A stretch of 64,000 nucleotides of DNA from a virus, in IMG/VR virus record IMGVR_UViG_3300032893_000004, positions 91,058-155,057 of that record; one strand, given 5' to 3'. The translations under genes were made by a program, and so were the position numbers. The notes beneath the pieces were generated by a model, which made no database searches, was not told the origin of the DNA, and saw only the letters and a list, made by a program, of their open reading frames with translations. Shown piece after piece: positions 11,404 to 27,440 of the stretch. The stretch's first letter is position 1, and every line of letters starts with the position of its first letter.

Positions 11404-12795
11404 TTAGAATAAATTGTCCACTATGACATTTTTTCTTGGCTGATAACCGGCAAGCGTCAGGAAGCGGAAGTGAGCTTCCGGGACGGACAAGTCCGCGATT
11501 GCGAGCTTCATGCGGCTGTACGGTGCCAGCTCGTGAAAGCCCCAAGTGTCCTTCTGGACAAGGTAACCGGTCACGAAGCCCGGCGATTTGTTGCCGAGGT
11601 CAGTGAAGGTCACGTTTGCGGATCCGTTTGCTGCGATACGACCGATGTAGTATGCAGTGGAGGCCGACGTCCCGCGATACACGTTGTAGAGCGAAGCTCC
11701 AGCAACGCCTGCGATAACTAGAGCAACTTGTTGGCCAGCTGCGACCGTAACGGGTGCCGAGAACATCTCGACGCCTTCACCGCGTTCATTCTCAGCCGTC
11801 ACGCCGTACACATAAGTGCCAGCGGGGATGAGCGCGCCAGAACCGGACGGCGTACCGACCGCAGTTGCGGGCGGGAGCGGCGAGCCGATCATTGCGCGAA
11901 GAGGCGAAGTTTTGCCGGACAAGAAGCGCGAGTCTTCGAGACCGACCGTTCCGTTGGAAACCCACTGTCTGCGGAGATCCGCGCCGGAAGCGTCTTGTGC
12001 GGAGCCAGCGAGCACGATCCGTTGGATCGAGTTCACGCCCGTACCGAGAGCGACCGAGGTGTTGTAACCGGACAAGATGACCGGGTCAACGAACATGGTT
12101 TCTGCTTTACCCATGTTCATGCGGCTGCGGAGAGCCGAACTTTCGATGATAGGCTGGTCGAGCGAACCGTTCTGCGAGAGAACGACCGACTTGTTCGATC
12201 CGTAAGATGCGAACATCAGATCCTGCGTCGAAACGAGGATGTCCGACATGCGAACTTGCGAATCGAGGCCGAGCATGCTCGGGAGTTCCGGCATCAGAGC
12301 CGGGTTACCGTCGAAGACGCCGTTGTTTGAGAAATCGGCCTTTCCTTTGAAAGAGTCGAATTCGATGTCCGCCGACAATTTGATTGCGGCGTTGTCCGCC
12401 TCACGGTCTTCGGCTTTCTTGCCGTCGATGGTCTCAACCATGTTAGCGGCGATTGTCACACGCTCAACACAGGAGTAGAAACACATCGGAACCGTAGCCC
12501 GGATATAGTCGCCGACGTTCAAGTCGCCGACCGCGCCTTCGCGCTGCGCCGTACCACCGAACCGTCCGTAAGACAGCTGACGGTTAAACTGCACAAGCAA
12601 TGACTTGGCTTTCTTCACCGAGAAGAGCTTCTGGAGCTTGATGTGACTGTCGTCAAACGTCACGTTGTGCATCACAGGCTCAAGGTTTTCGATCTGGAGA
12701 GCAGATCCTTGGACCAACTGCGACGGTGCTACGTTGTAGTTACCGGCCTCCAAGGTTTTCACGAGACTCTCAAGAGTCTTGACTAGATCGTCCAT
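11404..12795 (-). CDS. Major capsid protein (Herelleviridae/SPO1-like type, with FN3-like C-terminal insertion)
   Basis: 463 aa; GSALQIENLE, FNRQLSYG, IEFDSFKG, GTYVYGVTAENERGE, YNVYRG; follows the scaffold. Confidence 0.88.
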   Translation of the reverse strand: MDDLVKTLESLVKTLEAGNYNVAPSQLVQGSALQIENLEPVMHNVTFDDSHIKLQKLFSVKKAKSLLVQFNRQLSYGRFGGTAQREGAVGDLNVGDYIRATVPMCFYSCVERVTIAANMVETIDGKKAEDREADNAAIKLSADIEFDSFKGKADFSNNGVFDGNPALMPELPSMLGLDSQVRMSDILVSTQDLMFASYGSNKSVVLSQNGSLDQPIIESSALRSRMNMGKAETMFVDPVILSGYNTSVALGTGVNSIQRIVLAGSAQDASGADLRRQWVSNGTVGLEDSRFLSGKTSPLRAMIGSPLPPATAVGTPSGSGALIPAGTYVYGVTAENERGEGVEMFSAPVTVAAGQQVALVIAGVAGASLYNVYRGTSASTAYYIGRIAANGSANVTFTDLGNKSPGFVTGYLVQKDTWGFHELAPYSRMKLAIADLSVPEAHFRFLTLAGYQPRKNVIVDNLF

Positions 12796-12797
12796 TA

Positions 12798-13637
12798 TTA
12801 TTTCCCTCCCTTAGAGTGGATAATTTTTTCGACTTCTTCTGCCCCTTCACCGGAGATGTAGAGGCGGTTTACCATTTCACGTTCGCTCTTGGTCAGAGCG
12901 GCAGGCGAAAGCTTGCGAGCTTCTGCCTTAACTTGATCGATCGTCATCGGACGGCCGTTACCAGCTGCCGGATTGTCATTCTCGGTCTTGTTCATGACCT
13001 GAATTTCTGTGATCGACTTGCGAGCAGGCTTAGCGAGAGCTTCGAAGGCCTTCACGACCATCTGATTGGCTTCCTCAGCTTGCTGAACACGTTTTTCAAG
13101 AGCGGCGATCATCGCCTCCGACTTGCCCATATCTTGCGGCGGTGCTTGCGGCGCCGGAGCAGGAGGAGCGGCAGACTCGGGGGCGGCCGGTGCAGCCTGA
13201 CCTTGGTCTTGGCTGTAGGCAGCTTGGAGCTGTTGGCGGATGATCGAATAGTGTCGCTCAAGTTCGTCCGGCGGCATGGATCCGTAGATCTGGGCCAGCT
13301 CTTCATCGGACAACGGCTGGTCTTCGCCAGGTTGCCCTTCGGCCGCAAGTTGTTGCTCGTCGCCCGCCGGAGGCTGTTGGCCATCCATAGGGGGTTGGTC
13401 ACCTGCAGGCGGTTGATCGCCAGCCGGAGGAGCATCATCTGCGGGAGGAGCGTCGTCGGTAGGCGGCGCGTCAGAAGAAGCCGGTGCAGCGGATTTGTCC
13501 GGAGGAGCGTTTTTGTCGTCCTTCGGATCTGAATCTGCCGGATCTGCCTTAGCTAACAGCTCAGCCTTCGCCAGCGTTTCGTCAACGCTATCTAGGATGC
13601 TCTGTACGTCTTGGTCAGTCCATTTTGGCTTAGTCAT
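12798..13637 (-). CDS. Putative capsid scaffold protein
   Basis: Acidic Pro/Ala-rich low-complexity region plus coiled coil, directly upstream of the capsid gene. Confidence 0.7.
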   Translation of the reverse strand: MTKPKWTDQDVQSILDSVDETLAKAELLAKADPADSDPKDDKNAPPDKSAAPASSDAPPTDDAPPADDAPPAGDQPPAGDQPPMDGQQPPAGDEQQLAAEGQPGEDQPLSDEELAQIYGSMPPDELERHYSIIRQQLQAAYSQDQGQAAPAAPESAAPPAPAPQAPPQDMGKSEAMIAALEKRVQQAEEANQMVVKAFEALAKPARKSITEIQVMNKTENDNPAAGNGRPMTIDQVKAEARKLSPAALTKSEREMVNRLYISGEGAEEVEKIIHSKGGK

Positions 13638-14716: not shown

Positions 14717-14726
14717 AAGATTAGGC
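14717..14726 (-). promoter_or_regulatory. Putative late promoter motif GCCTAATCTT
   Basis: Overlaps the TAA stop of the 2191-aa gene. Confidence 0.7.
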
Positions 14727-17700
14727 TCTGCGCTTCTTCGGCGCCTTCGGCTGCAGTTCCAGTACCCAGCACTTCGTGGAAAGCTTGTTCTTCTTGAGAT
14801 TGTTCAGCATCTCTTTGTTATGCTTGGGATAATCTGTATAATCGCACTGCTGGAATCCAAATTTTCTAGGATTCTCGTCGTAGATCTTCCTGAACCCAAC
14901 CGTAAAAGGCTTGGTATTCGGATTGTCCCAGTACTCGCGGTCATATTTCCCACCGTTCGACATGTATCCGCGCAGTTCGGCGCCGTGCATGTAGAGGTGG
15001 GTGATGCCTTGAGCACGTGCGTTTTCGATAACCGCAGACATGGATGCTTCCGTCCAGTCCGACAGGTGAGTGTCGATCTTCTTGGCGTATTGCTTCATGT
15101 CCTCGGCGGTGATGTTCTGCCCATTGATCTTAGTCCCGGCCGGGAATTGGCTCATAAGAGCCTTCAGGTTTCGCCGGAACTTCTGGGCGAAATCCGATTG
15201 ATATTCCTCGATCGCCCACGCGTTCTTGCCTTTGACAGATTGATCGGTGTCAACCCGCGACCAGGAAACCATATGGGGCGTAGTGGGATGCATACCGATG
15301 GACCCGTTCGAGATGCCGTTTGTCTTCTGAAGTAGATGCTGGTATAGAGACCAAAGTTTCGGATCCTGGGACAGCTCCTTCTCGGAAGCCTCTGAATTGT
15401 TGACCTGGACAACCAAGTTAGCTCTGCCAGGTGGATTGTGTCGCTGCAGCTTAGAAGACCATTCCGAATATGTCAGGTGATACTTCTTGGAATTATCGTC
15501 TAGAGCGCGCATAGCTTGCGCGAATTGTTCCGGCATCACCGGCTTATTCTGAGCTGAAGTGAACACGGCCTTCACTGATGGCGGGAGAGACTTCTCTTCG
15601 GCCGGAAACTTCCTCTTGAATTCGGCCCACGCCATACCTTCAGCAGGTATGAGAGCCATGGTCGCTTTCATGCGCTCGTAGTCCTTGTGCTGGAGGCTGA
15701 TATCGCGTAGAACCTTCGACTCGTCCACACTTCCGCTGGCGCCGGCCTTCTGAGATTCCGGCAGCGCCACAGGGATGGCTCGAAACAGCTTGCCGCCGTA
15801 CGTCGGATTGGTCAAAGCCGGGTTGAACTTTCCGCCTGGGGCAAAGAACTTCGGAAACTGCTCGTTGGAAAGAGCAAACAACTCGCCGAGATCTTGTTCC
15901 GACACGTTCGGATGTTGCATGAGTTGAGTAGCCATTTCCGACGCCGTCCTCTTATCGATGTCCTTGTAATTTTGAGCATCGTTCCGGAGAATCGCGTCGG
16001 TGTACATCTTGACAGCTTTTGGCGGAGTAGACTTGTTCGAAAGTATATCGATCGAAGCCTGAGCCATCGCTTCTTTGTTGCGATCGAACATATCGTAGAC
16101 TTGAGCTGCAAGATCTTCGTCGATGTGAGGAGATGACGTCACAGGCTTAAGCTTCATAGCCAAATTATGACCTTCCGAGGGGTGGATGTCGGTGTGCCCG
16201 GAGAACATGTAATCGTGATTTTCCTTGGCATACGCTCGTAAGCTCTCGACGCCGCCGACGCCGTTTTCGACGGCCGTCTGGAACAAAGAGTTCCTAAGAT
16301 CGTGGGCACCGGATTGCGCCAGAAGATCGGTTAGGTCCTTGTGAGACATGTCTGGACCCATATACTTGAGACCTTCTTCCATCGCGTACGTATAGTCGTT
16401 GTGGAATATCTCGTTGTTGTTCTTGAGCTTGACGTACATGTGCAGAAGATTCTTACCGTGGTGAGCGATATCCTCCTTGGACATCTTCGCAAACCAATCT
16501 TTAGACGATTTAACGAACGCGGTCTTCGCTCGGTTCTCATCTTTATTCGTCGATTTCTCGCCGAACTGCTGGTAGTTCGAACCGTTGAGCGCTTCCGTCG
16601 GAATATTCGTCCGATCACGTAGAGCAAAGATCGCATGCGGAGCGGACTTAAACATCTCGCGCCAATCCTGCTCTTCGAAATTTTCTGCGGCTCCTACGAT
16701 ACCTTTGATGGCTTCATGGGTCTTTTCGGGAGCCAATTCTTTTCCGGAAGCCTCCTCGATGGAGTGGTACTCTTTCACCATGTCCATGACCTTGAGAGCA
16801 TCCTCGCGGTCCAGTTGTATGCCAGTCTTGGCGATCTTAGTCAGAATCGACAGCATCGTGGCATGGTCGCGGGACGCTTCTAACTTACCAGTATTGTTCA
16901 GGTCCGGTGCTTGGAGTCGCATATGAGACGCAACCGTTTTTATGTGACCGTGGATCTGTCCGATCATTTCGGAAATTTTGCCTAGCTTGTCTTTCAGATT
17001 CGGCGTTTCTTCCTTGACGCTGGCATTGTGTATGGCTGTGGCGTACTGATCTAGATTGCTCAGGATCTTGTTACGGTGTTCCGCGCCCATAAATGGGGCA
17101 TTCGGCGCAGCCAGATTCGGATCTTTGACCAACGCGTCCATATCACGCATCTTAGCGTGAACCGCGTAGATCAAGTTCCCGTCCATAGCCTGTCCTATCT
17201 GACGGATCAGCGGATTGAATTTTTCGTCCGGCATCGAACGAGCGAGCTTGACGGAATCGTCCGGCTGCACGTACTGGTTATGCTCCATCTTGCTGAACAT
17301 TCTAGACTGATCGATCGAGTACGGGTTCTCTGCGTTCACAGCCAGAGACCGATTCACCAGAATCGAAGAGTTCGCGCCGGTCAAGCGATCTGCGTTCTCT
17401 GCGAGAGCTTGAAGCTTCCACTCCGACGCAGATGCTTCGACGAATCTAGGATCATTGAGCAAGTTATCCGGTATTCGGTCTTCAGATAGTTCCGCGCCGG
17501 CGGCTAATTGATTGGGATCGTTTGGCAACTGTTCCCAAAGACTGACCGCCTGATCGACGTTGCCGGCTTCGGCAGACTGCATAGCCATGTTCCTGAGTTG
17601 AGCATGCGCGAACGGAGCGATCTTAGGATCCAGAGTCTGCTTCTTGATGTAGTTCAAGACGAATTCGTTCTTTTGCTGTTCTTCCGGTCCAGATTCTGAA

Positions 17701-20700
17701 GGCGTAAACGTCGATGCGAGATTGTTCATGAACTTTTCTCGCACCAATCCGCGAGGATCGTTTATCCCTTCCTGGGAGATCTTGTTTTCGAACGTCTTCG
17801 CAATTTCCAGCACCGCAGCCGGTTCGGTATTGGAATTCAGCTGGGACGACACGCCGGCTATCTGACGAGCGTTGAGAGTATTCGGCTGAGCCGCAGCTCT
17901 GGCCAAAGCACTGATGCCTTCGCTCGACAAGATCCCGTGATCAGAAAGCTGGATCATAGTATCGTAGTCTTTTTGATCAATGGCGTTGCGTTCGATCTGC
18001 TTGCCCATGTTAGCCGGCGCCATATTGCGCGATTTTAGAGCTACGTACGCCGACAACATCGTTCCGTTCTTATCTTCCGGGATGGCGTAGGATGCGGATG
18101 CCAAATGTTCAAGGACACTTTTTGCGATGCGCTTTCTGTCGTCCTGCGTCAGATCATCGCCTTGCGCTGGAGCCGAGAGCGCTTGCGCCAACATAGTCGA
18201 CAACTCGCCCGGACTCTTCGTACGATACAAGTCGATCAGGTTGTTCAATCGAGAATTATAGATACCCAGCGTTTCGTCTCTCATCGATGAGCGACGTCCG
18301 TGCTCGTGCGCCTCCGGGTTCAGCATAGACGAGTTGATCTTTGCGGCCAGATGCTCCAGATCTTCCGGTGTGTGATTTCCGCCGGAGACCCACGAATCGA
18401 GAGTTCTTTGACGCAGCTTAGGATTGCCTATCGCCAAGATGTCTCTGACGGAGTTAGCTTGAGTCATCTGCTGCAGTTTTTCTGGCGAGAGCAGATTATC
18501 GGCCAGAGCTTGGTGCTTTACAAGTTCGCCGTCTTTACCTGGCATATCAGCTAGAAAATCTAGGTTTGCACCAGCCGCCTTCAAAGATGATAGGAACCGA
18601 TCGTCGTGATACCCCTGCTTCTGACGAGTCATCAACGAATACCACTTCTCAGCGATCGGATTGTCTGTCTCTGAATCGCTGAAAGACGGCATCGACGCGA
18701 CCCGTCCGTGTAAATAATTGACGAGGTCTTCCGCCTTCTGGCGGCCGATGGCCTTTTTGTCCTCCGACTCGTAGCTGGAGACATGCACCCCACGACTCAG
18801 TTGATTCATCTTCCGCGCGAGCAGATTGTAGGCAAGCGGTGCCTTGCCTGAAGCGGCCGCGTGATCGATCAGCGCATCGTCTCCTGGCTTGGTGTACATC
18901 TCATCGGGGATATTATTTAGCAACCCTTCGTCGGACATGTGCCCAGGTTGGCCTTCCGGTACTGAAATAAGCTGATCCAATACAGATCTGTCATTCGGCG
19001 ATTCAGGATCCAAGTGGCTTACAGCCTTCGCCTGATAATTCTGGAAACTGCCGCCGATCCTATCGTTATCTCCCGGATCGTTGTACATGCCAAGCACGGC
19101 GTTGTGGAATATGTCCGGTCTGTGGTTCTTAACATGTTCGACTTCATCTTTGATTAGTCGCTGCTTGTTATCAGTCGACAACATGTTGAAAGCGCGGTCC
19201 CACGACGCCTGAGGAGCGTTAGCGCGAACAACTGATATGGCCGCCTTCTGCGAACCGCTGTTCAAGATCGGTTCGTATTTTTTGTTCTGCTCATCCTCCG
19301 GAAGGGAATCGTAGCGCTTAAAATAATCTCCCGCTCCGATCTTATCCATAAGTTCGCCGTTCCGGGCAATCTCATGGAACAGATATTCCGGCATATTGTT
19401 AGATTCAAACAGCTTTCGTGCCATGTGAGCGGAATCATCGAACAGCTCTGGGCGACCGCCATGGTCGTATACTTGCGTGTTGTTTGCGATATATTCCTGA
19501 CGTTTTCGGAACATGTCGGCCAAGAAATCTGGATCGGCATCGTTCAGATTTATGTTGGACTGAACCTCGGAAAGATATCCTGGATTTTTGAGAATAGCAG
19601 CTTGGGCGTTTTTGTCGCCGTTCACCGCCAGATGCGAGATGGCCGTTACGATCCTGGAGTTGTTGTCCCGCTGGTTCCTGCCCATCACGTCGTTAGAATG
19701 CGATACGACCATCTGGTTCTTCGGAACTTTGTCGTCGAAGATGTTAGCGAGATCTTTAGAATTAGCCTCGCGGATGGCAGACGGTACGCGCTGATCGAGC
19801 GCCAAGTTGAACTTACTGCTTATGACGTTCTCCGGACGCTCCTTGGTCTTCTTGGAGATCTCATCTATGTTATCGCCCTGATACTTCTCGTGAGCCTTCG
19901 CGAAGATGGCTTCCTGATCCATCTTGGGCAACTTATCGAACTGCTGCTGAAACTTCGGATCATGGTACACGTTCGAGAGACTGGTCGCACCGGACTTTAG
20001 TCCTTCCTTCACCTGCTGTTCAGCCACCAACGGATGCAGCCGTGCGGCGTCTTGAACAGTCTTTGCCCGACGTTTCAAACCTTCGTCAACCACATCCATG
20101 TCTGCGTTCGGATGATTCAGAGCCTTGACGGCGACTTCCTGGTTCTTGTGGTTTACGATCTCTTTCAGCACGTCGGGCGGTACGGACTGGGCTTGAAGAA
20201 TATCGCGTGCAGAATCTAGGTCCTTCGAGCCTTTTTGCCAGTAATCGCGGACGTCCGCTTCGTCTGCCATAGGATGCTTGATCGCTTTGTTGAAACCTTT
20301 TTGGATCAGAGCCTTAACCTGCGGCTTCGTCAGCGATGGGTTCTGAAGAAGACTGTCGACCTTGTTACGGGTCTCCCAGTCGCCTGAATCTTTGAACCGC
20401 TTTATCATACCGTTGATGGACTCTTGCGGCAGACGCGGATTCTCGATGGCACTATCGCGGGAATTCTTGCCTACCGCGTACTTTGCCAGCAGCGCCGGGT
20501 CGACGTTCTTGTGGCTTAGCAGGGCATCTAAACGCTGGTTGGCGTAATAGTCATGTCTATCGCCGGACTTGTTAGCTTCGTACCACTGGTGAATCTTGTT
20601 TAACTGATCCTTCGATAGATCTTCGCGTCCTTCCACCAGATCGTTGAGAGCTTCGTGCGGATCATGCTTCGAAGCCGCAAACGCGTCGATAGTCCGATCG

Positions 20701-21296
20701 AGAGTTTCCGGAGTGTGCCGCGAACTGTTGATCAGACCTTTCTTGGCAAAATCTAACTCTCGGGAATGCTGCTTCTGGCCATTCTCATCCAGTTCGTTCG
20801 GATCTTGCTGAGACCGACCTTTGAAGAATTTCATATAGTAGTTCGGGCCAAGATGCTTGTAGGCATGAGGTACATCGCCGGAAGCTAGAACTTTCTCCGC
20901 CATTCCTTTCAGCTGATTCTCGTCCAAGATACCAGAATCGGCCATTTCTGCGTGCAAATCCGACGAAGGATTCTCCGGATTGAAAGTCTTCAAGACAAAG
21001 TCTTGCTTCAACTCTTTAGGAGTATTCGGATGCTTGAGGATATTCTCCATCAAGTCGTTGCGCGGTTCGGCGTCGCCGGTAGCAGCCGAGGTCGAGTCAG
21101 GAGTTACCGGCGCCATCGTGTGATGATAAAGCTTATCGATCGAATGAGCTGACAGATTGGGATGAGAAGTCACTTCCTTCATCAGGTCGATGTTGTCAGC
21201 CTGCTCGTGTTCGGGCAGCTGGATATGATGTTCCACGTGGGCGTGCAAGGTATCTGCCGGCGTGTCGGGCGCTAAGTGTTTGATCTCGTCGCTCAT
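14721..21296 (-). CDS. 2191-aa protein with HPN/NP-type helical repeats and a C-terminal EEYQSD domain; likely internal virion protein
   Basis: Repeats ILKHPNTP, LLSHKNVD, AIENPRLP, LLQNPSLT, ALNHPNAD; lies between protease and scaffold. Confidence 0.6.
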   Translation of the reverse strand: MSDEIKHLAPDTPADTLHAHVEHHIQLPEHEQADNIDLMKEVTSHPNLSAHSIDKLYHHTMAPVTPDSTSAATGDAEPRNDLMENILKHPNTPKELKQDFVLKTFNPENPSSDLHAEMADSGILDENQLKGMAEKVLASGDVPHAYKHLGPNYYMKFFKGRSQQDPNELDENGQKQHSRELDFAKKGLINSSRHTPETLDRTIDAFAASKHDPHEALNDLVEGREDLSKDQLNKIHQWYEANKSGDRHDYYANQRLDALLSHKNVDPALLAKYAVGKNSRDSAIENPRLPQESINGMIKRFKDSGDWETRNKVDSLLQNPSLTKPQVKALIQKGFNKAIKHPMADEADVRDYWQKGSKDLDSARDILQAQSVPPDVLKEIVNHKNQEVAVKALNHPNADMDVVDEGLKRRAKTVQDAARLHPLVAEQQVKEGLKSGATSLSNVYHDPKFQQQFDKLPKMDQEAIFAKAHEKYQGDNIDEISKKTKERPENVISSKFNLALDQRVPSAIREANSKDLANIFDDKVPKNQMVVSHSNDVMGRNQRDNNSRIVTAISHLAVNGDKNAQAAILKNPGYLSEVQSNINLNDADPDFLADMFRKRQEYIANNTQVYDHGGRPELFDDSAHMARKLFESNNMPEYLFHEIARNGELMDKIGAGDYFKRYDSLPEDEQNKKYEPILNSGSQKAAISVVRANAPQASWDRAFNMLSTDNKQRLIKDEVEHVKNHRPDIFHNAVLGMYNDPGDNDRIGGSFQNYQAKAVSHLDPESPNDRSVLDQLISVPEGQPGHMSDEGLLNNIPDEMYTKPGDDALIDHAAASGKAPLAYNLLARKMNQLSRGVHVSSYESEDKKAIGRQKAEDLVNYLHGRVASMPSFSDSETDNPIAEKWYSLMTRQKQGYHDDRFLSSLKAAGANLDFLADMPGKDGELVKHQALADNLLSPEKLQQMTQANSVRDILAIGNPKLRQRTLDSWVSGGNHTPEDLEHLAAKINSSMLNPEAHEHGRRSSMRDETLGIYNSRLNNLIDLYRTKSPGELSTMLAQALSAPAQGDDLTQDDRKRIAKSVLEHLASASYAIPEDKNGTMLSAYVALKSRNMAPANMGKQIERNAIDQKDYDTMIQLSDHGILSSEGISALARAAAQPNTLNARQIAGVSSQLNSNTEPAAVLEIAKTFENKISQEGINDPRGLVREKFMNNLASTFTPSESGPEEQQKNEFVLNYIKKQTLDPKIAPFAHAQLRNMAMQSAEAGNVDQAVSLWEQLPNDPNQLAAGAELSEDRIPDNLLNDPRFVEASASEWKLQALAENADRLTGANSSILVNRSLAVNAENPYSIDQSRMFSKMEHNQYVQPDDSVKLARSMPDEKFNPLIRQIGQAMDGNLIYAVHAKMRDMDALVKDPNLAAPNAPFMGAEHRNKILSNLDQYATAIHNASVKEETPNLKDKLGKISEMIGQIHGHIKTVASHMRLQAPDLNNTGKLEASRDHATMLSILTKIAKTGIQLDREDALKVMDMVKEYHSIEEASGKELAPEKTHEAIKGIVGAAENFEEQDWREMFKSAPHAIFALRDRTNIPTEALNGSNYQQFGEKSTNKDENRAKTAFVKSSKDWFAKMSKEDIAHHGKNLLHMYVKLKNNNEIFHNDYTYAMEEGLKYMGPDMSHKDLTDLLAQSGAHDLRNSLFQTAVENGVGGVESLRAYAKENHDYMFSGHTDIHPSEGHNLAMKLKPVTSSPHIDEDLAAQVYDMFDRNKEAMAQASIDILSNKSTPPKAVKMYTDAILRNDAQNYKDIDKRTASEMATQLMQHPNVSEQDLGELFALSNEQFPKFFAPGGKFNPALTNPTYGGKLFRAIPVALPESQKAGASGSVDESKVLRDISLQHKDYERMKATMALIPAEGMAWAEFKRKFPAEEKSLPPSVKAVFTSAQNKPVMPEQFAQAMRALDDNSKKYHLTYSEWSSKLQRHNPPGRANLVVQVNNSEASEKELSQDPKLWSLYQHLLQKTNGISNGSIGMHPTTPHMVSWSRVDTDQSVKGKNAWAIEEYQSDFAQKFRRNLKALMSQFPAGTKINGQNITAEDMKQYAKKIDTHLSDWTEASMSAVIENARAQGITHLYMHGAELRGYMSNGGKYDREYWDNPNTKPFTVGFRKIYDENPRKFGFQQCDYTDYPKHNKEMLNNLKKNKLSTKCWVLELQPKAPKKRRA

Positions 21297-21892
21297 TTTT
21301 CACCGTACTTTAGCCAACGCATCAGCTCTTTTGTCCAGTCTTGATCTTCCGCACCGGAGAGGTTAGCTTCGTCGATGGCCGGATCATATTCTCTGGAAGC
21401 CATTTCCCGATCGTCGTCGTGCTTCTGCTGATCTTTTTCAACCATACCGAGAACTGTATCGTTGATCTTAGCCTTGGGCGAATGGAAGTCCGGCGGCGGA
21501 TTGGCCGGCACAACCGGTAGGGCCTGCTGAACGTCTGTTTTGCGAGCTACTTTGATCTCGCCGCGAGTGAAAGCATTGAACAGCGCGTCCTTCTCTTCCT
21601 GCGGCAACAGGTGACCGTTGAGGATGACCGTGTGGCCGTCCGAGGTGATCTCTACCACGTCGCCGTTGTCCATGACGTACCGTAAAAGATTGACGGTGGC
21701 CTTGGTCGGCTCCGACATAGTCAGGTGCGACGAATTTCCGACAACCTGCTGCATCTTCGGATAACTGTTCTGGAACAACTTAGGCAATTGGCCGTTTGTA
21801 TTGTCTACGACAAAGTCGAGCGCATCTCCGTCCGTGCGGATCTCCGCGAGCGGTATTTCGGAATAATCTGATTTGATGACTACGACTTTCAT
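21293..21892 (-). CDS. Hypothetical head-module protein
   Basis: ATGA-coupled on both sides. Confidence 0.7.
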   Translation of the reverse strand: MKVVVIKSDYSEIPLAEIRTDGDALDFVVDNTNGQLPKLFQNSYPKMQQVVGNSSHLTMSEPTKATVNLLRYVMDNGDVVEITSDGHTVILNGHLLPQEEKDALFNAFTRGEIKVARKTDVQQALPVVPANPPPDFHSPKAKINDTVLGMVEKDQQKHDDDREMASREYDPAIDEANLSGAEDQDWTKELMRWLKYGEK

Positions 21893-23589
21893 GCTACTCT
21901 CTTCGCTCTTTCTTCGGCGTTAACCTTGGTCATATGATTCGCTGCGTGATCAAACATCTGTCCTATGCTCATGTCAGAACGATCGGCGAGTTTTTGATAA
22001 TATTTCAATCCAGAAACCGCCGTTTTTATTGTAGCAGGATCGTGACCTTGATCCAACATCTTTCCGGCAAGAGTTTTAGCGTCTATGCCCTTGAGCCACT
22101 TCGCAGCTTCCGGATGAAGCTTATCGTTCCCTTTTTCGGCAGAAATAAGGTCAGGTTCCGTAAAACCACCGTTCCAACCGAGAAAAGCATCGTCGTGATC
22201 TATGCTCATCAGATGACCTTTAGGATGAACCAACAAATTGCCGTTATGCCGGTCACCTACACCAAGAATATGATTCGCGATAATCAACTTGTGAATGTGG
22301 CCATCCTTCTCGTGTTTCCGAAAAGCGTTGGCTAGAACATCTCCGCTTTGCAAAGGAGTCTTTGCTTCTTTTATGTATTCCATGGCTGATATGGCATTGC
22401 CGCCGTGGACGTTCGGATGTGCTACTTTTGTGACAATCGGCACATACTTTCCGAGTCCAAAAACGTCTTTCATGATCTGAAAGTGATTGTGCGCATTCGT
22501 GTATTCTTTGTCCGCCATACGATTTCCGACTGGACCTTCCGGCCTATGCTTAACCAAGACGTCCCGTCCTTGATCGTTACGAAGATGCAGGATTTTCTTT
22601 TTCCGACTGGAATGCACAGACTCGGAAGCTGGATCGTAGTAAAGTCCCTCTACCAGCGACTTCTGGTCATCGTCGGACGACGGATGGGCGTGCTTAGCTC
22701 CGATGCGCACCAGCTTTGGAGACGGCATGTTCTTCTTGAGCGCCAGCTCTTCCGCCAGCTTCTCGAAGTGGCCGATGTAGTCGTCTGACACCTCTGGTAG
22801 AGCGCCTTTCAGCACTTCCTTGAGAGGACGCTTGCGGTCCCAGTCGCGAACAGCGGCCTTCACGCGATTTCTCTGGAATCCGCTGATATGCTCGCGGGTA
22901 AGTGCGGCTTGACCGGTCAGCTGGGACGGAGCTACGTTGCCCATACCAGCCTCTATGCTCTTCGTGAGACTCTCGACGGCCTTGTGCAGATCCAGTATCG
23001 GATCCTTGGGGATGAACATATCATCGAGGATAATTGAATCGATTTCGATTAAATGATCGACTCGATCCGACACATCTGAAATATATTTAGCTATTGAGAT
23101 CGATTTTGGATCTTCAAGTAATCCGGCTATGGCTGCCTTATTGCACGCGCGTAAGGTGCATGCCACGCGCCTTCCGACAGTTTCTTTTAAGATGTAGTCA
23201 TCCCGCTCAAGCGTCGCACCCTCAATACTGAAGTTTGTAAGTAGCCGTTCGCCCTGTTTTGCATAATAACGTATCATTGCGGCGACTGCGACTGCGCCAG
23301 GATGATTTACATCATCGTCATCGAACAATTCTGAAATAATATAAACAAACGGCTTTTTTACTATGTTCCAATAATATCTTTGACGATCATTTTCACAATC
23401 TTCTTTTTTAAGAATTTTTCTTGCATAGATAATTGCCCCGATGATATCGTCGGATTTATTCGAATGCTCCCAATTTAATACCCCTCGGCCTTCGACGAGA
23501 TCTGATATGTCGTGGTTGGCAACAACGAGTAACTCACCTGAGCTGTCGATTGTTTCAACTGTTGCACATCCGTCCAGTTTGAGGCCCAT
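21889..23589 (-). CDS. Prohead protease fused to a C-terminal PI3/PI4-kinase/HipA-like domain
   Basis: N-terminal GCATVETIDSSGE..LNWEH..FSIEG..VACT; C-terminal VLVKH..GDRHNGNLLV..SIDHDDAF; ATG 23589 with GGAGGT SD. Confidence 0.78.
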   Translation of the reverse strand: MGLKLDGCATVETIDSSGELLVVANHDISDLVEGRGVLNWEHSNKSDDIIGAIIYARKILKKEDCENDRQRYYWNIVKKPFVYIISELFDDDDVNHPGAVAVAAMIRYYAKQGERLLTNFSIEGATLERDDYILKETVGRRVACTLRACNKAAIAGLLEDPKSISIAKYISDVSDRVDHLIEIDSIILDDMFIPKDPILDLHKAVESLTKSIEAGMGNVAPSQLTGQAALTREHISGFQRNRVKAAVRDWDRKRPLKEVLKGALPEVSDDYIGHFEKLAEELALKKNMPSPKLVRIGAKHAHPSSDDDQKSLVEGLYYDPASESVHSSRKKKILHLRNDQGRDVLVKHRPEGPVGNRMADKEYTNAHNHFQIMKDVFGLGKYVPIVTKVAHPNVHGGNAISAMEYIKEAKTPLQSGDVLANAFRKHEKDGHIHKLIIANHILGVGDRHNGNLLVHPKGHLMSIDHDDAFLGWNGGFTEPDLISAEKGNDKLHPEAAKWLKGIDAKTLAGKMLDQGHDPATIKTAVSGLKYYQKLADRSDMSIGQMFDHAANHMTKVNAEERAKRVA

Positions 23590-24338
23590 TATGCGTACCT
23601 CCAAATGTATCCTCTATGCGTTTTTGTGACTCCGCAACAAACACCGCGTACCTTCGATGCGCAACATCCAATAGATTCAGTATCTTTAGGGCAGTCCCAT
23701 ACCTTTACTGTCAATCCCGTCAGCGGATCGATCTGCAAAACTTTTTTGGCTCTTTTTAATTGAAGTTCTCGCTTGAAAATTGGGTCCAGACGCAATTTAT
23801 TTAGTCTCGCTTCATTCGCTGCGCTAAGAGCTTCGCTGCGATCATGGGTCGACCAGTATTTTTCGGCTCCGGCCATGCGATTTTGTTTGCCGGAATCAGA
23901 CATTTTCCGCAATTGTTCTTTTCCAGCATCTGTGGCTGCCCACAGTTTACGTTCTTCTGACTTTTTCGTACGTCGGTCTTTGTCCCAGCTCGCGATTGCG
24001 CTGGCAGAAAGTGTCTTTTTCAATTCTGATGTGTATATGCATCCTTCTTTCCCGCCATGTTTAATGTTGTATCCCGAGGGACGAAGTGAGCCAAAACATA
24101 CTATAAAATGTCTCTCCATGCGATCCAAGGAAGTCTGATCTATATATGTAATCAACTCTTCCTTTTCAAAAGATTCGCGCCCATATTTTTTTATGGCATT
24201 CTTGATTGGCCTAGAAGTATTTTTGGTCGCACAACAATGGTCTGCCCAACGCTCGGCCATTGAGCGAGTAGTCTGGCCGATATAGATCTTACCGTTCACA
24301 TTGTTCGTGATTTTGTAAATGATTCCGTATCGTTGCAT
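23589..24338 (-). CDS. Free-standing GIY-YIG homing endonuclease with NUMOD1-like C-terminus
   Basis: GIIYKITN..KIYIGQT..R, GYNI, KTHRGYIWRY; AT-rich. Confidence 0.9.
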   Translation of the reverse strand: MQRYGIIYKITNNVNGKIYIGQTTRSMAERWADHCCATKNTSRPIKNAIKKYGRESFEKEELITYIDQTSLDRMERHFIVCFGSLRPSGYNIKHGGKEGCIYTSELKKTLSASAIASWDKDRRTKKSEERKLWAATDAGKEQLRKMSDSGKQNRMAGAEKYWSTHDRSEALSAANEARLNKLRLDPIFKRELQLKRAKKVLQIDPLTGLTVKVWDCPKDTESIGCCASKVRGVCCGVTKTHRGYIWRYA

Positions 24339-24344
24339 TCTCGT

Positions 24345-24354
24345 AAGATTAGGC
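24345..24354 (-). promoter_or_regulatory. Putative late promoter motif GCCTAATCTT
   Basis: Between the stop of the gpF-like gene and ATG 24338 (6-nt gap). Confidence 0.7.
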
Positions 24355-25239
24355 TCATCCGTGATTACATCCTGGTCCGTGTTCATGCTCTCTCTCGTGT
24401 TCAATATTCATAGCTAAATACTCATCGTAACTCACGAATTCGCTCTTAACAAGAGGAACTGCATCTGGCACTTCTTCGGCTTTCTTCAGCTTCCAGTAGT
24501 CCTTGTGGTAGTCATACCCAAATTCGACGAACTCGATCACGCCAGCATCGTTGAAGCCGAAGTTCGGCGGGACAAAGCTCATCACGTGTCGGCAGCGCGG
24601 GTGAAGCGGCGACTGATGCGGAGTCTTTCCGTCCCATTCTTTGGGCTTGAAGTATCCCTCCTGGATCTGTGACAACTTGTACGGCTTCGGCTTCCGTATC
24701 GCAGCGGAGTCGTGGTACATCGCCTTGCAGTATTTACAAATCTTGTGGTCGCAGACTCCTAGAAAAACGACGGTCGGATCTTTGACACCGATGTCAGACG
24801 CAAGCTTGCCGATACCCTCGCGCGAGGCATATGTCTGCACGATGCGCGCTTCGTTCGAGACGAGCAGATCGACGTACTGACCTGCCTTCTCGAAGTGCCC
24901 GCGAATAGATCGAATCGCTTCAGATGGGGTCTTCGCTTTAGCCACGTCTGCCAGAATGTGGTTCTTGATCTTGAGCTGCTGTGAATCCATGTAATTACTC
25001 GTAATATCAGCCAAATTTTCGATATTCTTCTGATCAGGCTTAGAATGGGCTCCGTACATGGTCTTCAGAGTGAAGTTGTACAGGCCTTCGATCGTATGGA
25101 GCGGATCAGCTCGGCGAACGACTTCGAAGTACAGCTTCGGCCCTTTGAACATCTTGCCTAGCAGCTTAGCCTTCGTTCCTTCGAACAGAGACTCGATCCG
25201 CTGGATTATGATGTTCCTCTGGGCGTCGGTGAGCTTCAT
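24355..25239 (-). CDS. Mu gpF / SPP1 gp7-like minor head protein
   Basis: DHKICKYC and PLHPRCRH; follows the portal. Confidence 0.75.
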   Translation of the reverse strand: MKLTDAQRNIIIQRIESLFEGTKAKLLGKMFKGPKLYFEVVRRADPLHTIEGLYNFTLKTMYGAHSKPDQKNIENLADITSNYMDSQQLKIKNHILADVAKAKTPSEAIRSIRGHFEKAGQYVDLLVSNEARIVQTYASREGIGKLASDIGVKDPTVVFLGVCDHKICKYCKAMYHDSAAIRKPKPYKLSQIQEGYFKPKEWDGKTPHQSPLHPRCRHVMSFVPPNFGFNDAGVIEFVEFGYDYHKDYWKLKKAEEVPDAVPLVKSEFVSYDEYLAMNIEHEREHEHGPGCNHG

Positions 25240-27440
25240 CAGCTCCCCTTCTTTTTACCGTCTTTGAGGATCCTCGCCATGGCGGCGACCTCTTTCGCAG
25301 ATTCGCGCTTGAAGTGGGCCATCGTGGAGTCTACCAGCTGCTTGTGCTGGCGCATCAGGCGACGCGAGATTCTATCGTGGTTATTCTGGATGGTCTTTTC
25401 GAGCAGCATGTAGCTATTCGTCGACCACGCCATATTCTTGGCCGAGATATCCTTCACGATGTCGATCGCTTTTTCGGCTTTAGAAGTCTGCTCAGGCGGC
25501 ATGCTGCCGCCTCCGGAGTCGCTGCTGTCATCGTCCGACCCGGAATCCTTGTTGTCCGAGCCAGAATCTTTGTTATCACCTTCGTCGTCCTGGATAGGGT
25601 TTCCCTGCGCGTCAGCCGTGATACCTTGCTCGGCCAGTGCCTGCTGCTGCATCATCTGCTGAGCTTGCATCTGCTGCTGCATCGCTATCTGAGCTTGCTG
25701 GAGGATCATCTGCTTGTTCTGGAACCAGAACGGATCGCGGATGTACTGGTAGCGAGGATCAGACGCAGCGCCTTTCACTTTGAAGAAGTTTTCGAGGATC
25801 TGACCAACAGTCAGGTACTTGTCCATGACTGCCTGGAACTGCGGGTTAAGCGGAAAGTCGCCGCCCATCTCGACCGGAACCGGGTTCTTCTCGACCTGTT
25901 CCATGATCTCGTTGTAGTTCATGTGAACGGCCATGTCCTGCTGCAGACGGGTGTTCTCTTTTTCCGGAGAATCCTTATCCAAACCAGTCAGAACGATCTG
26001 ATGCGTCTTAGCCAGTTCCGGATCCACGAATGGGAGGATATGGGTATTCAAAAAGTCTTGGATATCGGATAAGAGCGGACGGAGGCCCACATCGCGGGCA
26101 GCCGTAAGCTTCCACTCGTTGTCCGATTCTGAAAGTGCCTGAGTATTCGTGCCCCGAGCAAGGTGAGCGTAGCCAGGCAATTCTTCCGGCGACATCTGGA
26201 AGGCCGAGAGGATCACCCGAGCGTTGTTGTCCATCAGGTACTGGAATTCTGCGTCGCGGCCGGAGTTATCGATCGCTTCCCAGTTCAGCTTATCCTCGGA
26301 TCCGATCGCGAAGACGGGCATGCGCCACGAGTTTTGAACGGAGTTGATCGACTGATGGAATTGGAGGCGAATACGCTGTGCTGCTGCTTCGTCCATGGAG
26401 TCGGACTGGAACACGAGCATGCCCTTCGAAGCGCGGCCGTGCTGGAAGTACAGCTTGTTATGGACAGTGATGTTGATGTGGGTCGTGATCGCGTTGAGCG
26501 CCTGATCGATCGGAGTAAGAGGGTAGCCGTTATACTCGATGCCTGTCGTCGGATAAAGATTGTAGACGACCATCTCTTCTTCGGTGAATGTCTGAACCGG
26601 CTTTCCTTCGATGACCTGAACGTAGCGGTACTCGTCCTTCTTGTACTTCTCGATGTCGATCTTCTTGTTCTTGATCTGCTGCAACTGACGAATAGCTTCT
26701 TGGCGAAGCGACTGGTCGTGTTCTTTCTGCGGCAAGATTTTCAACATCGTGCCGGCGTCGGAAGCGCGCCATGCGTATAGTTCTCGTTTGCCTGTTTCCG
26801 GATTCGTCCACCAGCTACGTTCGCAGGCGAGACGACCGAAGGCAAGTCCATCGCGGGTCACCAGCTTCAGGAATTGAGACAAGTTGACTTGATCAAGCTC
26901 GCCGTCAAGAGTGCCGCGACCGCACTGCCAGAACTTCTTCTTGGCTGCGTCGATTCTCTCTTGAATCTTGCGCTGATCTTCTTCAGAACGCTTGGCGTTC
27001 TTGTCCATGTCTTGAAATTCGAAGCCTACACTGAAGCGGTCCGTCCTAGGACGACCGAAGGATGATATATGGTTCGAACGAGCTTGAAGAATCTCGTTGA
27101 CCAACTCGTCGCCGCCCGGCCCGCAGATACGCTTGATGATATGATCAGGCGTTAGATTCTGTTTTAGCCGGTAAAATCCGAGAGCACCGGAATAGTTAGC
27201 ATGCGGGTCAACCTGGAACGACATTCGTTCGAGTTGAGCTGCCTGCATAGCGTTCTGAGCTTTGATAGACTTAACAATCTCACCGAGAACACCGGTATCA
27301 GCTGTAGTCACTTCCTCTTTTTCGTTGGAAAGTTCCCGCGCCGCCGCGTCAGCTTTAAGAAGCTTCAGAGCGTTCGGATCCAGAGCGACTATCTCTTGCC
27401 GTGGGCGATAACGCTTCTTTTTTTCTTCTTCGTTTGCCAT
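25239..27440 (-). CDS. Portal protein
   Basis: 733 aa; GYPLTPID, YFQHG..KGML, WRMPV, DAEFQ, AFQMSPEE; between terminase and head genes. Confidence 0.88.
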   Translation of the reverse strand: MANEEEKKKRYRPRQEIVALDPNALKLLKADAAARELSNEKEEVTTADTGVLGEIVKSIKAQNAMQAAQLERMSFQVDPHANYSGALGFYRLKQNLTPDHIIKRICGPGGDELVNEILQARSNHISSFGRPRTDRFSVGFEFQDMDKNAKRSEEDQRKIQERIDAAKKKFWQCGRGTLDGELDQVNLSQFLKLVTRDGLAFGRLACERSWWTNPETGKRELYAWRASDAGTMLKILPQKEHDQSLRQEAIRQLQQIKNKKIDIEKYKKDEYRYVQVIEGKPVQTFTEEEMVVYNLYPTTGIEYNGYPLTPIDQALNAITTHINITVHNKLYFQHGRASKGMLVFQSDSMDEAAAQRIRLQFHQSINSVQNSWRMPVFAIGSEDKLNWEAIDNSGRDAEFQYLMDNNARVILSAFQMSPEELPGYAHLARGTNTQALSESDNEWKLTAARDVGLRPLLSDIQDFLNTHILPFVDPELAKTHQIVLTGLDKDSPEKENTRLQQDMAVHMNYNEIMEQVEKNPVPVEMGGDFPLNPQFQAVMDKYLTVGQILENFFKVKGAASDPRYQYIRDPFWFQNKQMILQQAQIAMQQQMQAQQMMQQQALAEQGITADAQGNPIQDDEGDNKDSGSDNKDSGSDDDSSDSGGGSMPPEQTSKAEKAIDIVKDISAKNMAWSTNSYMLLEKTIQNNHDRISRRLMRQHKQLVDSTMAHFKRESAKEVAAMARILKDGKKKGS

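Follow-up and report, generated by a model that had tools for sequence, protein, structure and literature searches.

A copy of the capsid protein N-terminus lies within SPO1/Mx1-type prohead proteases and co-evolves with its original

The window analyzed here is a stretch of 64,000 nucleotides, positions 91,058 to 155,057 of the virus record IMGVR_UViG_3300032893_000004, and belongs to a single-contig phage genome of 155 kb. Its minus strand encodes a prohead protease fused to a PI3/PI4-kinase-like domain and, farther along the same strand, the major capsid protein. The two proteins share a segment: the linker between the protease and the kinase contains a near copy of the capsid N-terminus. 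The features at issue are listed below. Residues of the fusion are numbered throughout in the 571-amino-acid frame that begins at the TTG codon, and an arrow (↓) marks a cleaved or putatively cleaved bond.

21889..23604, minus strand: open reading frame (ORF) of the protease-kinase fusion, 571 amino acids from TTG 23604 or 566 amino acids from ATG 23589.
23062..23580, minus strand: prohead serine protease domain, residues 9-181, assigned from fold matches, a profile match to SPO1 gp3.2, and the invariant His47 and Ser126.
22885..22992, minus strand: protease copy, residues 205-240, a segment of the low-confidence linker that resembles the probable capsid maturation site and the start of the N-arm.
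22957..22962, minus strand: candidate scissile bond K215↓S216 (LTK↓SIEAG), placed by homology.
22732..22881, minus strand: small helical domain, residues 242-291, predicted by AlphaFold2 (AF2) and ending in L289-K290-K291 (nucleotides 22732-22740).
21895..22710, minus strand: PI3/PI4-kinase-like cargo domain, residues 299-570, assigned from PF00454 and fold matches.
11404..12795, minus strand: major capsid protein, 463 amino acids, SPO1-type HK97 fold (phrog_752, E = 2e-33; 52.6% identity to Mx1).
12682..12789, minus strand: capsid N-terminal segment, residues 3-38, paired with the protease copy by BLASTP and containing a homology-placed cut at K13↓T14.

The true start of the fusion is probably ATG 23589, five residues past the TTG, since a GGAGG lies 8 nucleotides upstream of it and a 566-amino-acid database protein (P0009) is 100% identical across the aligned region. 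An AF2 model built from 40 relatives, with a mean predicted local distance difference test (pLDDT) score of 83.8, divides the protein into four parts: a confident region at residues 9-181, where the pLDDT is mostly above 85; a low-confidence linker at 182-239, within which a helix is predicted at 202-219; the helical domain at 242-291; and a second confident region at 299-570. Residues 1-152 of the model match phage T4 gp21 (5jbl; Z 11.0, root-mean-square deviation 2.4, 122 aligned residues) and the varicella-zoster virus (VZV) protease (1vzv; Z 9.6), i.e., they adopt an assemblin-like fold. A 40-sequence family profile aligns with SPO1 gp3.2 at 98.7% probability (hhalign, E = 3e-16). The window domain itself finds no direct Pfam match, even at E up to 5, and the PF04586 (Peptidase_S78) cut-off of 21 bits is passed by SPO1 gp3.2 (23.7 bits) and by the protease of phage f2b1 (22.8 bits). 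The domain is thus an HK97-family (Peptidase_S78) prohead serine protease whose sequence match is indirect, via SPO1 gp3.2. H47 and S126, the latter within an SIEG motif, are invariant across the 40 sequences and are the predicted catalytic residues.

The C-terminal domain scores 42.8 bits with PF00454 over residues 437-474 (cut-off 27.1), contains DRHNGN and IDH motifs, and has the fold of PI4K II-alpha (4pla; Z 17.9, 239 residues aligned), CtkA (Z 12.3), and HipA (Z 11.3). A second PI3/PI4-kinase-like paralogue, free of any protease fusion, occupies positions 2-1094 of the window (minus strand; PF00454, E = 2.3e-7) and runs off the window start. The helical domain ahead of the fused kinase shows no homology to the C-termini of HK97 gp4 or SPO1 gp3.2, and a relationship to the scaffold C-terminal domain was rejected at an hhalign probability of about 1%.

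Residues 205-240 of the fusion pair with residues 3-38 of the major capsid protein in a gap-free alignment of 36 positions, 20 of them identities and 26 positives (BLASTP, E = 3e-7). The heptapeptide NVAPSQL is identical in both segments, and each carries two L-x-K-[AST] sites seven residues apart. A profile made from the window and Mx1 copies and searched against the six-frame translation of the 155-kb genome retrieves exactly these two sites (E about 1e-25 and 1e-24), with the third-ranked match at E = 0.46. The similarity is therefore real and no chance match, as a first-pass annotation of this DNA had held on the strength of the gapless alignment, the shared heptapeptide, and the doubled sites. 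That annotation placed the segment correctly at 22885 and set its end 2 nucleotides short, at 22990 rather than 22992. It had also noted a resemblance visible in the DNA. The two copies are 61% identical in nucleotides, and within the 36 residues that it considered, the same codon is used at 11 of the 20 identical residues against 7.3 expected, so the likeness is merely imposed by the common amino acids. Nor is the segment a general loading tag of this phage, since the copy is missing from all other putative head cargo that the genome encodes; the kinase paralogue at 2-1094 was covered by the same six-frame profile search and lacks it.

The motif is widespread in relatives. The closest isolate is phage Mx1, whose ‘putative prohead protease’ is a fusion of 1239 amino acids; its protease (about residues 257-298) and its capsid N-terminus (residues 3-44) share the motif in an Mx1-specific version. 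Every capsid N-terminus from 29 viral contigs recovered via the capsid protein carries the motif, and a second copy is found in the protease ORF, C-terminal to the catalytic domain, wherever the protease gene falls within the fetched flank (24 viral-contig and phage loci). Among 120 database homologues of the protease region, 119 have it. The lone exception, P0032, has an unrelated stretch at residues of about 200-235 flanked by normal sequence on either side, and has the appearance of a frameshift or misassembly, not of a genuine loss. In two loci (L003 and L004), the copy is present in a divergent form. Comparing the capsid N-terminus of a phage with its own protease by BLASTP gives E = 4e-12 over 63 residues in SPO1, whose protease is a cargo-free protein of 256 amino acids, E = 7e-10 in the Aeromonas phage ST4, and E = 9e-9 in f2b1 (Bastillevirinae); Pseudomonas phage Dolphis and Morganella phage Mecenats66 also have the copy. 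In SPO1 (L034, 4158-4928 and 5692-5950), the similarity is longer than in the clade of the window and runs past the core motif into the next capsid segment, L-x-N-L-S-[FY]. This is the co-conservation that the first-pass annotation had named as a check; the segment is more conserved than most of the protease or of the capsid protein.

The surroundings of the copy are far less constant. The distance from the catalytic domain to the copy ranges from 20 to about 400 residues in relatives, and 60 to about 1000 residues follow it; in the minimal protease SPO1 gp3.2, the copy begins about 10-15 residues past the catalytic domain. Cargo found C-terminal to the copy includes the kinase, GGDEF (PF00990), PF18905, and an S-adenosylmethionine (SAM) lyase, while a GNAT domain and a transglycosylase-like E-S-S-G-G region are located N-terminal to it.

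L027:5741-7597 (minus strand), L020:5760-8003 (minus strand), L003:9986-11677 (plus strand), and proteins P0114-P0116: relatives with other fused enzymes, i.e., SAM lyase, GNAT domain, transglycosylase-like region, and GGDEF cyclases.

The copy is thus a conserved module of SPO1/Mx1-type HK97-family (S78) prohead proteases and not a kinase tag: it belongs to a protease family, is present in SPO1 in the absence of cargo, and stands elsewhere beside quite different cargo. This variety of fused enzymes suggests a general loading route for injected enzymes, some with an anti-defence flavour.

The protease copy and the cognate capsid N-terminus co-evolve. In a set of 21 non-redundant genomes, a protease copy agrees at 17.6 of 29 core positions with the capsid N-terminus of its own genome and at 15.3 with those of other genomes (0 of 20,000 permutations). 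Similarly, for 17 clade representatives drawn from all lineages, there are 17.06 identities within genomes versus 12.33 across genomes (0 of 100,000 permutations), and 14 of the 17 protease copies match no other capsid copy better than their own. As the permutations ignore relatedness, the number of independent events outweighs these counts: at least seven separate lineage-specific changes occur at the same column in both copies. Examples are Leu to Tyr in the G-A-A-L stretch of L024/L027, Ala to Val in L028, F-R in SPO1, the whole FQTG/FLTG...PETQ version of f2b1, EAS...TD in ST4 and Dolphis, AGYGG in L003/L004, and the doubled heptad in the clade of the window. Gene conversion was considered as a source of this agreement and rejected. 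In the 29-column core of the 21 genomes, the codons of the two copies coincide at 139 of the 369 identical residues, where codon usage predicts 137; with synonymous codons matching at chance level, the similarity is kept by selection on the protein.

The cut in the shared segment can be placed by homology. The capsid protein of phage 812 is present in the PDB both as a precursor of 463 amino acids (5lii) and, in 9row and two other entries, as a chain of 439 amino acids. The latter lacks exactly the first 24 residues and begins behind the aligned lysine, VVK↓SFQTG, the counterpart of K13↓T14 in the window capsid protein. By this alignment, the capsid protein is very probably cut at K13↓T14 (nucleotides 12754-12759), giving a mature N-terminus TLEAG. 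In the virion proteome of phage Bc431v3, peptide coverage of the capsid protein likewise begins right after the aligned lysine (L-Q-K↓S-F-T-T-G; PMC3601020 supplement), which agrees with this cut and is no proof of it, since trypsin was used. In the protease, the likely bond is K215↓S216, because L213 and K215 are nearly invariant and the upstream lysine of the doubled site is not; the first L-x-K would then be an extra specific to this clade. The reading of the segment as a shared maturation signal, already put forward in the first-pass annotation, fits both the family-wide conservation and the co-variation, with L-x-K↓[AST] very probably being the maturation cut. Purified Bc431v3 virions also yielded one peptide from within the protease copy (residues 175-197) and one from the catalytic domain (PMC3601020 supplement 2), so traces, at least, of the copy region seem to persist in heads. 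Finally, the nearly invariant L289-K290-K291, which closes the 50-residue helical domain between the copy and the kinase, follows the same L-x-K rule and is a candidate second cut site ahead of the kinase.

The head module also includes a scaffold-like gene and the portal gene.

12798..13637, minus strand: scaffold-like protein, 279 amino acids, acidic and rich in Pro in its N-terminal half and helical in its C-terminal half, encoded immediately upstream of the capsid gene.
25239..27440, minus strand: portal protein (Pfam Phage_portal and PHROG portal families), marking the head-assembly module.

Homologues of the scaffold-like protein keep several invariant K↓[AS] sites that lack the 25-residue extension. 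The invariant lysines are followed by Ala, Ser, or Thr (in the window K↓SE, P-x-x-K↓S-I-T, K↓TE, and T-K↓SER), one of them inside the conserved C-terminal domain, and look like conserved degradation sites.

The best reading of these data is that the copy is a shared maturation-plus-recruitment signal. We consider it about an even chance (a probability of roughly 0.5) that it is a self-processing and recruitment module of SPO1/Mx1-type proteases, with the kinase being cargo placed behind it. The module consists of an amphipathic helix that contains the [LIVMF]-x-K↓[AST] bond and of a stretch of about 25 further residues, whose capsid counterpart begins the mature N-arm; conservation of the module in both proteins spans P3 to about P25'. 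Because conservation reaches about 25 residues past the bond, and because the scaffold K↓[AS] sites occur without this extension, more than active-site recognition seems to be conserved. The N-arm of HK97-type shells is flexible as long as the particle is a prohead, and takes up an ordered position on neighbouring subunits once the shell has expanded (PMC12749128). Where the scaffold is a separate protein, its C-terminus binds the N-arm helix of the capsid protein in the procapsid (PMC5744158, PMC12749128). During procapsid assembly, the copy would engage whatever usually receives the N-terminus of a capsid subunit; by analogy with the separate-scaffold phages, this receiver would most probably be the scaffold C-terminal domain or the adjoining inner surface of the shell. 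The protease and any fused cargo would thereby be built into the procapsid, where the activated enzyme would cut the capsid protein and itself at the same site. Self-cleavage would part the catalytic domain from the C-terminal module and its cargo, which would stay in the head and probably be delivered to the host with the DNA. The two copies would co-evolve because one partner and one active site have to accommodate both. On this proposal, in which we infer the binding partner, the retention in the head, and the ejection, the copy is the protease’s own signal, and cargo exploits it by fusion.

Several observations weigh against this proposal. The co-variation fits a purely enzymatic exosite equally well. 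The Bc431v3 copy peptide is low-scoring (ion score 23) and comes from a low-abundance protein, and the position of the cut derives from homology and deposited chain lengths. The copy is not indispensable for an S78-type protease, as no extended copy is detectable in DAC19 and MA9V-3, Bacteroidota relatives of the capsid protein with S78-type proteases, and HK97 likewise has no extended copy, just a K↓S-[VL] resemblance. Structure prediction gives little guidance: the linker is unstructured and undocked in the AF2 fusion model (pLDDT below 50), which says little either way, and an AF2 model of the capsid protein with 22 relatives (pLDDT 44) predicts no more than an N-terminal helix at residues 2-17 and is too poor for N-arm contacts. 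Protease-scaffold fusions that lack the copy were tried as a natural experiment and rejected as not clean: MA9V-3 fits, but DAC19 has no copy despite its separate scaffold.

The strongest competitor, which we regard as possible though distinctly less probable, is that the segment of ~30 residues serves substrate recognition only. It would combine a determinant for the active-site cleft with one for an exosite, mark the two primary and obligatory cuts, capsid trimming and the self-release of the protease, and have no part in recruitment or docking; the two copies would co-vary by facing the same enzyme surface. The capsid protein and the protease are indeed substrates, or presumed substrates, of one enzyme, P3 (Leu), P1 (Lys), and P1'-P5' are among the invariant positions, and minimal proteases, of which SPO1 gp3.2 is one, have the copy close behind the catalytic domain. 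In herpesvirus proteases, too, the release site and the maturation site have a consensus in common. Against this reading, herpesvirus proteases read about four residues around the bond, a span hard to reconcile with a conservation that reaches P25' here, and the invariant K↓[AS] sites of the scaffold do without the extension. Insertions of 100-400 residues that part the copy from the catalytic domain in relatives, and the failure of AF2 to dock the copy on the protease domain, also speak against recognition as its whole function. Proteases of the same fold read few residues, as in the I/L-x-E of T4 gp21 (PMC12991175).

A docking role of another kind was one of the two suggested in the first-pass annotation. 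After the cut at K215, the copy, the small domain, and the kinase would remain anchored on the inner shell by a capsid-like neo-N-terminus inserted there in the manner of a capsid N-arm, for instance at unfilled N-arm sites beside the portal. The cut would indeed create SIEAG, against TLEAG in the capsid protein, and the similarity lasts for 25 residues; the ordering of HK97-type N-arms on neighbouring subunits (PMC12749128) and the copy peptide in Bc431v3 virions also agree with it. We nevertheless regard this model as unlikely. Each capsid subunit supplies its own N-arm, leaving few free sites, and the helical domain with the nearly invariant LKK at 289-291 may sever the kinase from the copy, so that the kinase would be freed without the capsid-like end. 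Moreover, cargo upstream of the copy, as found in some relatives, would leave with the catalytic domain, and SPO1 has the copy without any cargo to anchor.

Still less probable is a pseudo-substrate latch, in which the copy would sit in the active site of the protease molecule that carries it, or of one next to it, keep the enzyme inactive in the cytoplasm, and be displaced by the concentrated capsid N-termini of the procapsid. The copy faithfully reproduces the main substrate and is tethered to the enzyme, and prohead proteases such as T4 gp21 and HK97 gp4 must stay silent until assembly; however, the bond is cleavable, with a nearly invariant Lys at P1, the tether varies enormously in length, and AF2 shows no docking. 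That the segment has no current function, being a relic of an ancient duplication or having arisen through recurrent gene conversion between head genes that sit about 10 kb apart in one module, is close to refuted by the co-variation together with the chance-level synonymous matches of the 21 genomes, and is very hard to square with a motif that is more conserved than most of either protein and persists, still co-varying, from Bacillus phages to myxophages.

Five known systems resemble the proposed recruitment module in part. One is HK97 gp4, which has the same protease family and fold and is encoded between the portal and capsid genes. The region C-terminal to its catalytic domain is said, after work by Duda, Oh, and Hendrix in 2013, to carry the enzyme into the procapsid. 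The enzyme cuts the capsid protein gp5 after a lysine, K103 (K103↓S104), and cuts itself. Unlike the proteases described here, it has no copy of the N-arm beyond the K↓S-[VL] resemblance, and its capsid protein carries a 102-residue scaffold domain, in place of which there is here a propeptide of 6-33 residues and a separate scaffold. The capsid-targeting peptides of T4 and P1 also are short peptides that send a cargo enzyme into the head; that of T4 is removed by the prohead protease and can carry foreign proteins. These signals are N-terminal and do not resemble the capsid protein, and the T4 signal, of ~10 residues, is cut after Glu in I/L-x-E. In contrast, the window copy is internal (residues 205-240), located within the protease itself, imitates the capsid N-terminus, and has a conserved, predicted cut after Lys. 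It may work like a targeting sequence, though outside the T4-type family.

In herpesviruses, the UL26 protease-scaffold polyprotein has the same assemblin-like fold (VZV, Z 9.6), is carried in by its C-terminal part, and frees itself at a site that resembles the maturation site; its consensus spans about four residues, its C-terminal part is the scaffold itself, and the capsid protein is neither cut nor imitated. Encapsulin cargo-loading peptides, too, are short peptides by which enzymes dock inside an HK97-fold shell, but they are C-terminal, uncleaved, and no copies of the shell protein, in a system with no protease or scaffold. In the staphylococcal phage 80alpha, the capsid protein and the scaffolding protein have the same N-terminal sequence where both are cleaved, and the scaffold C-terminus binds the capsid N-arm helix (PMC5744158). 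There, however, the protease is the host enzyme Prp, which has no copy, and the shared part is mainly the 13-14 residues that are removed, which also occur in the ribosomal protein L27 (PMC5744158). None of these five analogues is an extended, co-evolving copy of a retained capsid N-terminus within a protease. The searchable literature, which leaves much of the older Herelleviridae literature outside the search, yielded no description of such a copy in a protease, and no publication in it directly documents the cut site or the shared motif.

To our knowledge, the route by which prohead proteases and injected cargo enter the head is known for few models, i.e., the C-terminal signal of HK97, the targeting peptides of T4 and P1, and protease-scaffold fusions. 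A protease that mimics, and co-evolves with, the maturation site and N-arm start of the capsid protein would be a different solution, spread across a very large group of phages that includes SPO1 and the therapeutic myoviruses of Staphylococcus, Listeria, and Enterococcus. It would explain the diverse enzymes fused to this protease in metagenomic phages and yields predictions on the cut positions, on the residues that need to match between the two genes, and on the effect of losing the extension. More tentatively, the copy could be a portable, lineage-matched entry signal that binds the site receiving the capsid N-terminus (the scaffold C-terminal domain or a groove of the inner shell), so that an adjoining protein is built into the head, and that has been used repeatedly for kinases, GGDEF cyclases, SAM lyases, acetyltransferases, and wall hydrolases. 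If so, a possible rule for loading foreign proteins into heads of the SPO1 or phage K type would follow: the tag must match the capsid protein, since the copies co-evolve.

The window capsid protein matches SPO1 gp6.1 (9vel) and the phage 812 capsid protein among the sequences in the PDB. The protease gene sits between the portal gene and the scaffold and capsid genes, with a 2191-amino-acid ORF and several small ORFs intercalated. The large ORF (window 14721-21296, minus strand), located between the protease-kinase and the scaffold and capsid genes, has no Pfam match and contains a single strict L-x-K-[AST]-[LIVMF]-[EDQT] site, at about residue 1165. Mx1 has no giant gene at this position, where a nucleotide cyclase comes next after its 1239-amino-acid protease fusion. 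In the window, the immediate upstream neighbour of the protease gene, within the head module, is a GIY-YIG homing-endonuclease gene (window 23589-24404, minus strand; Pfam GIY-YIG; phrog_314, E = 5e-35), whose end overlaps the TTG-to-ATG region of the protease ORF.

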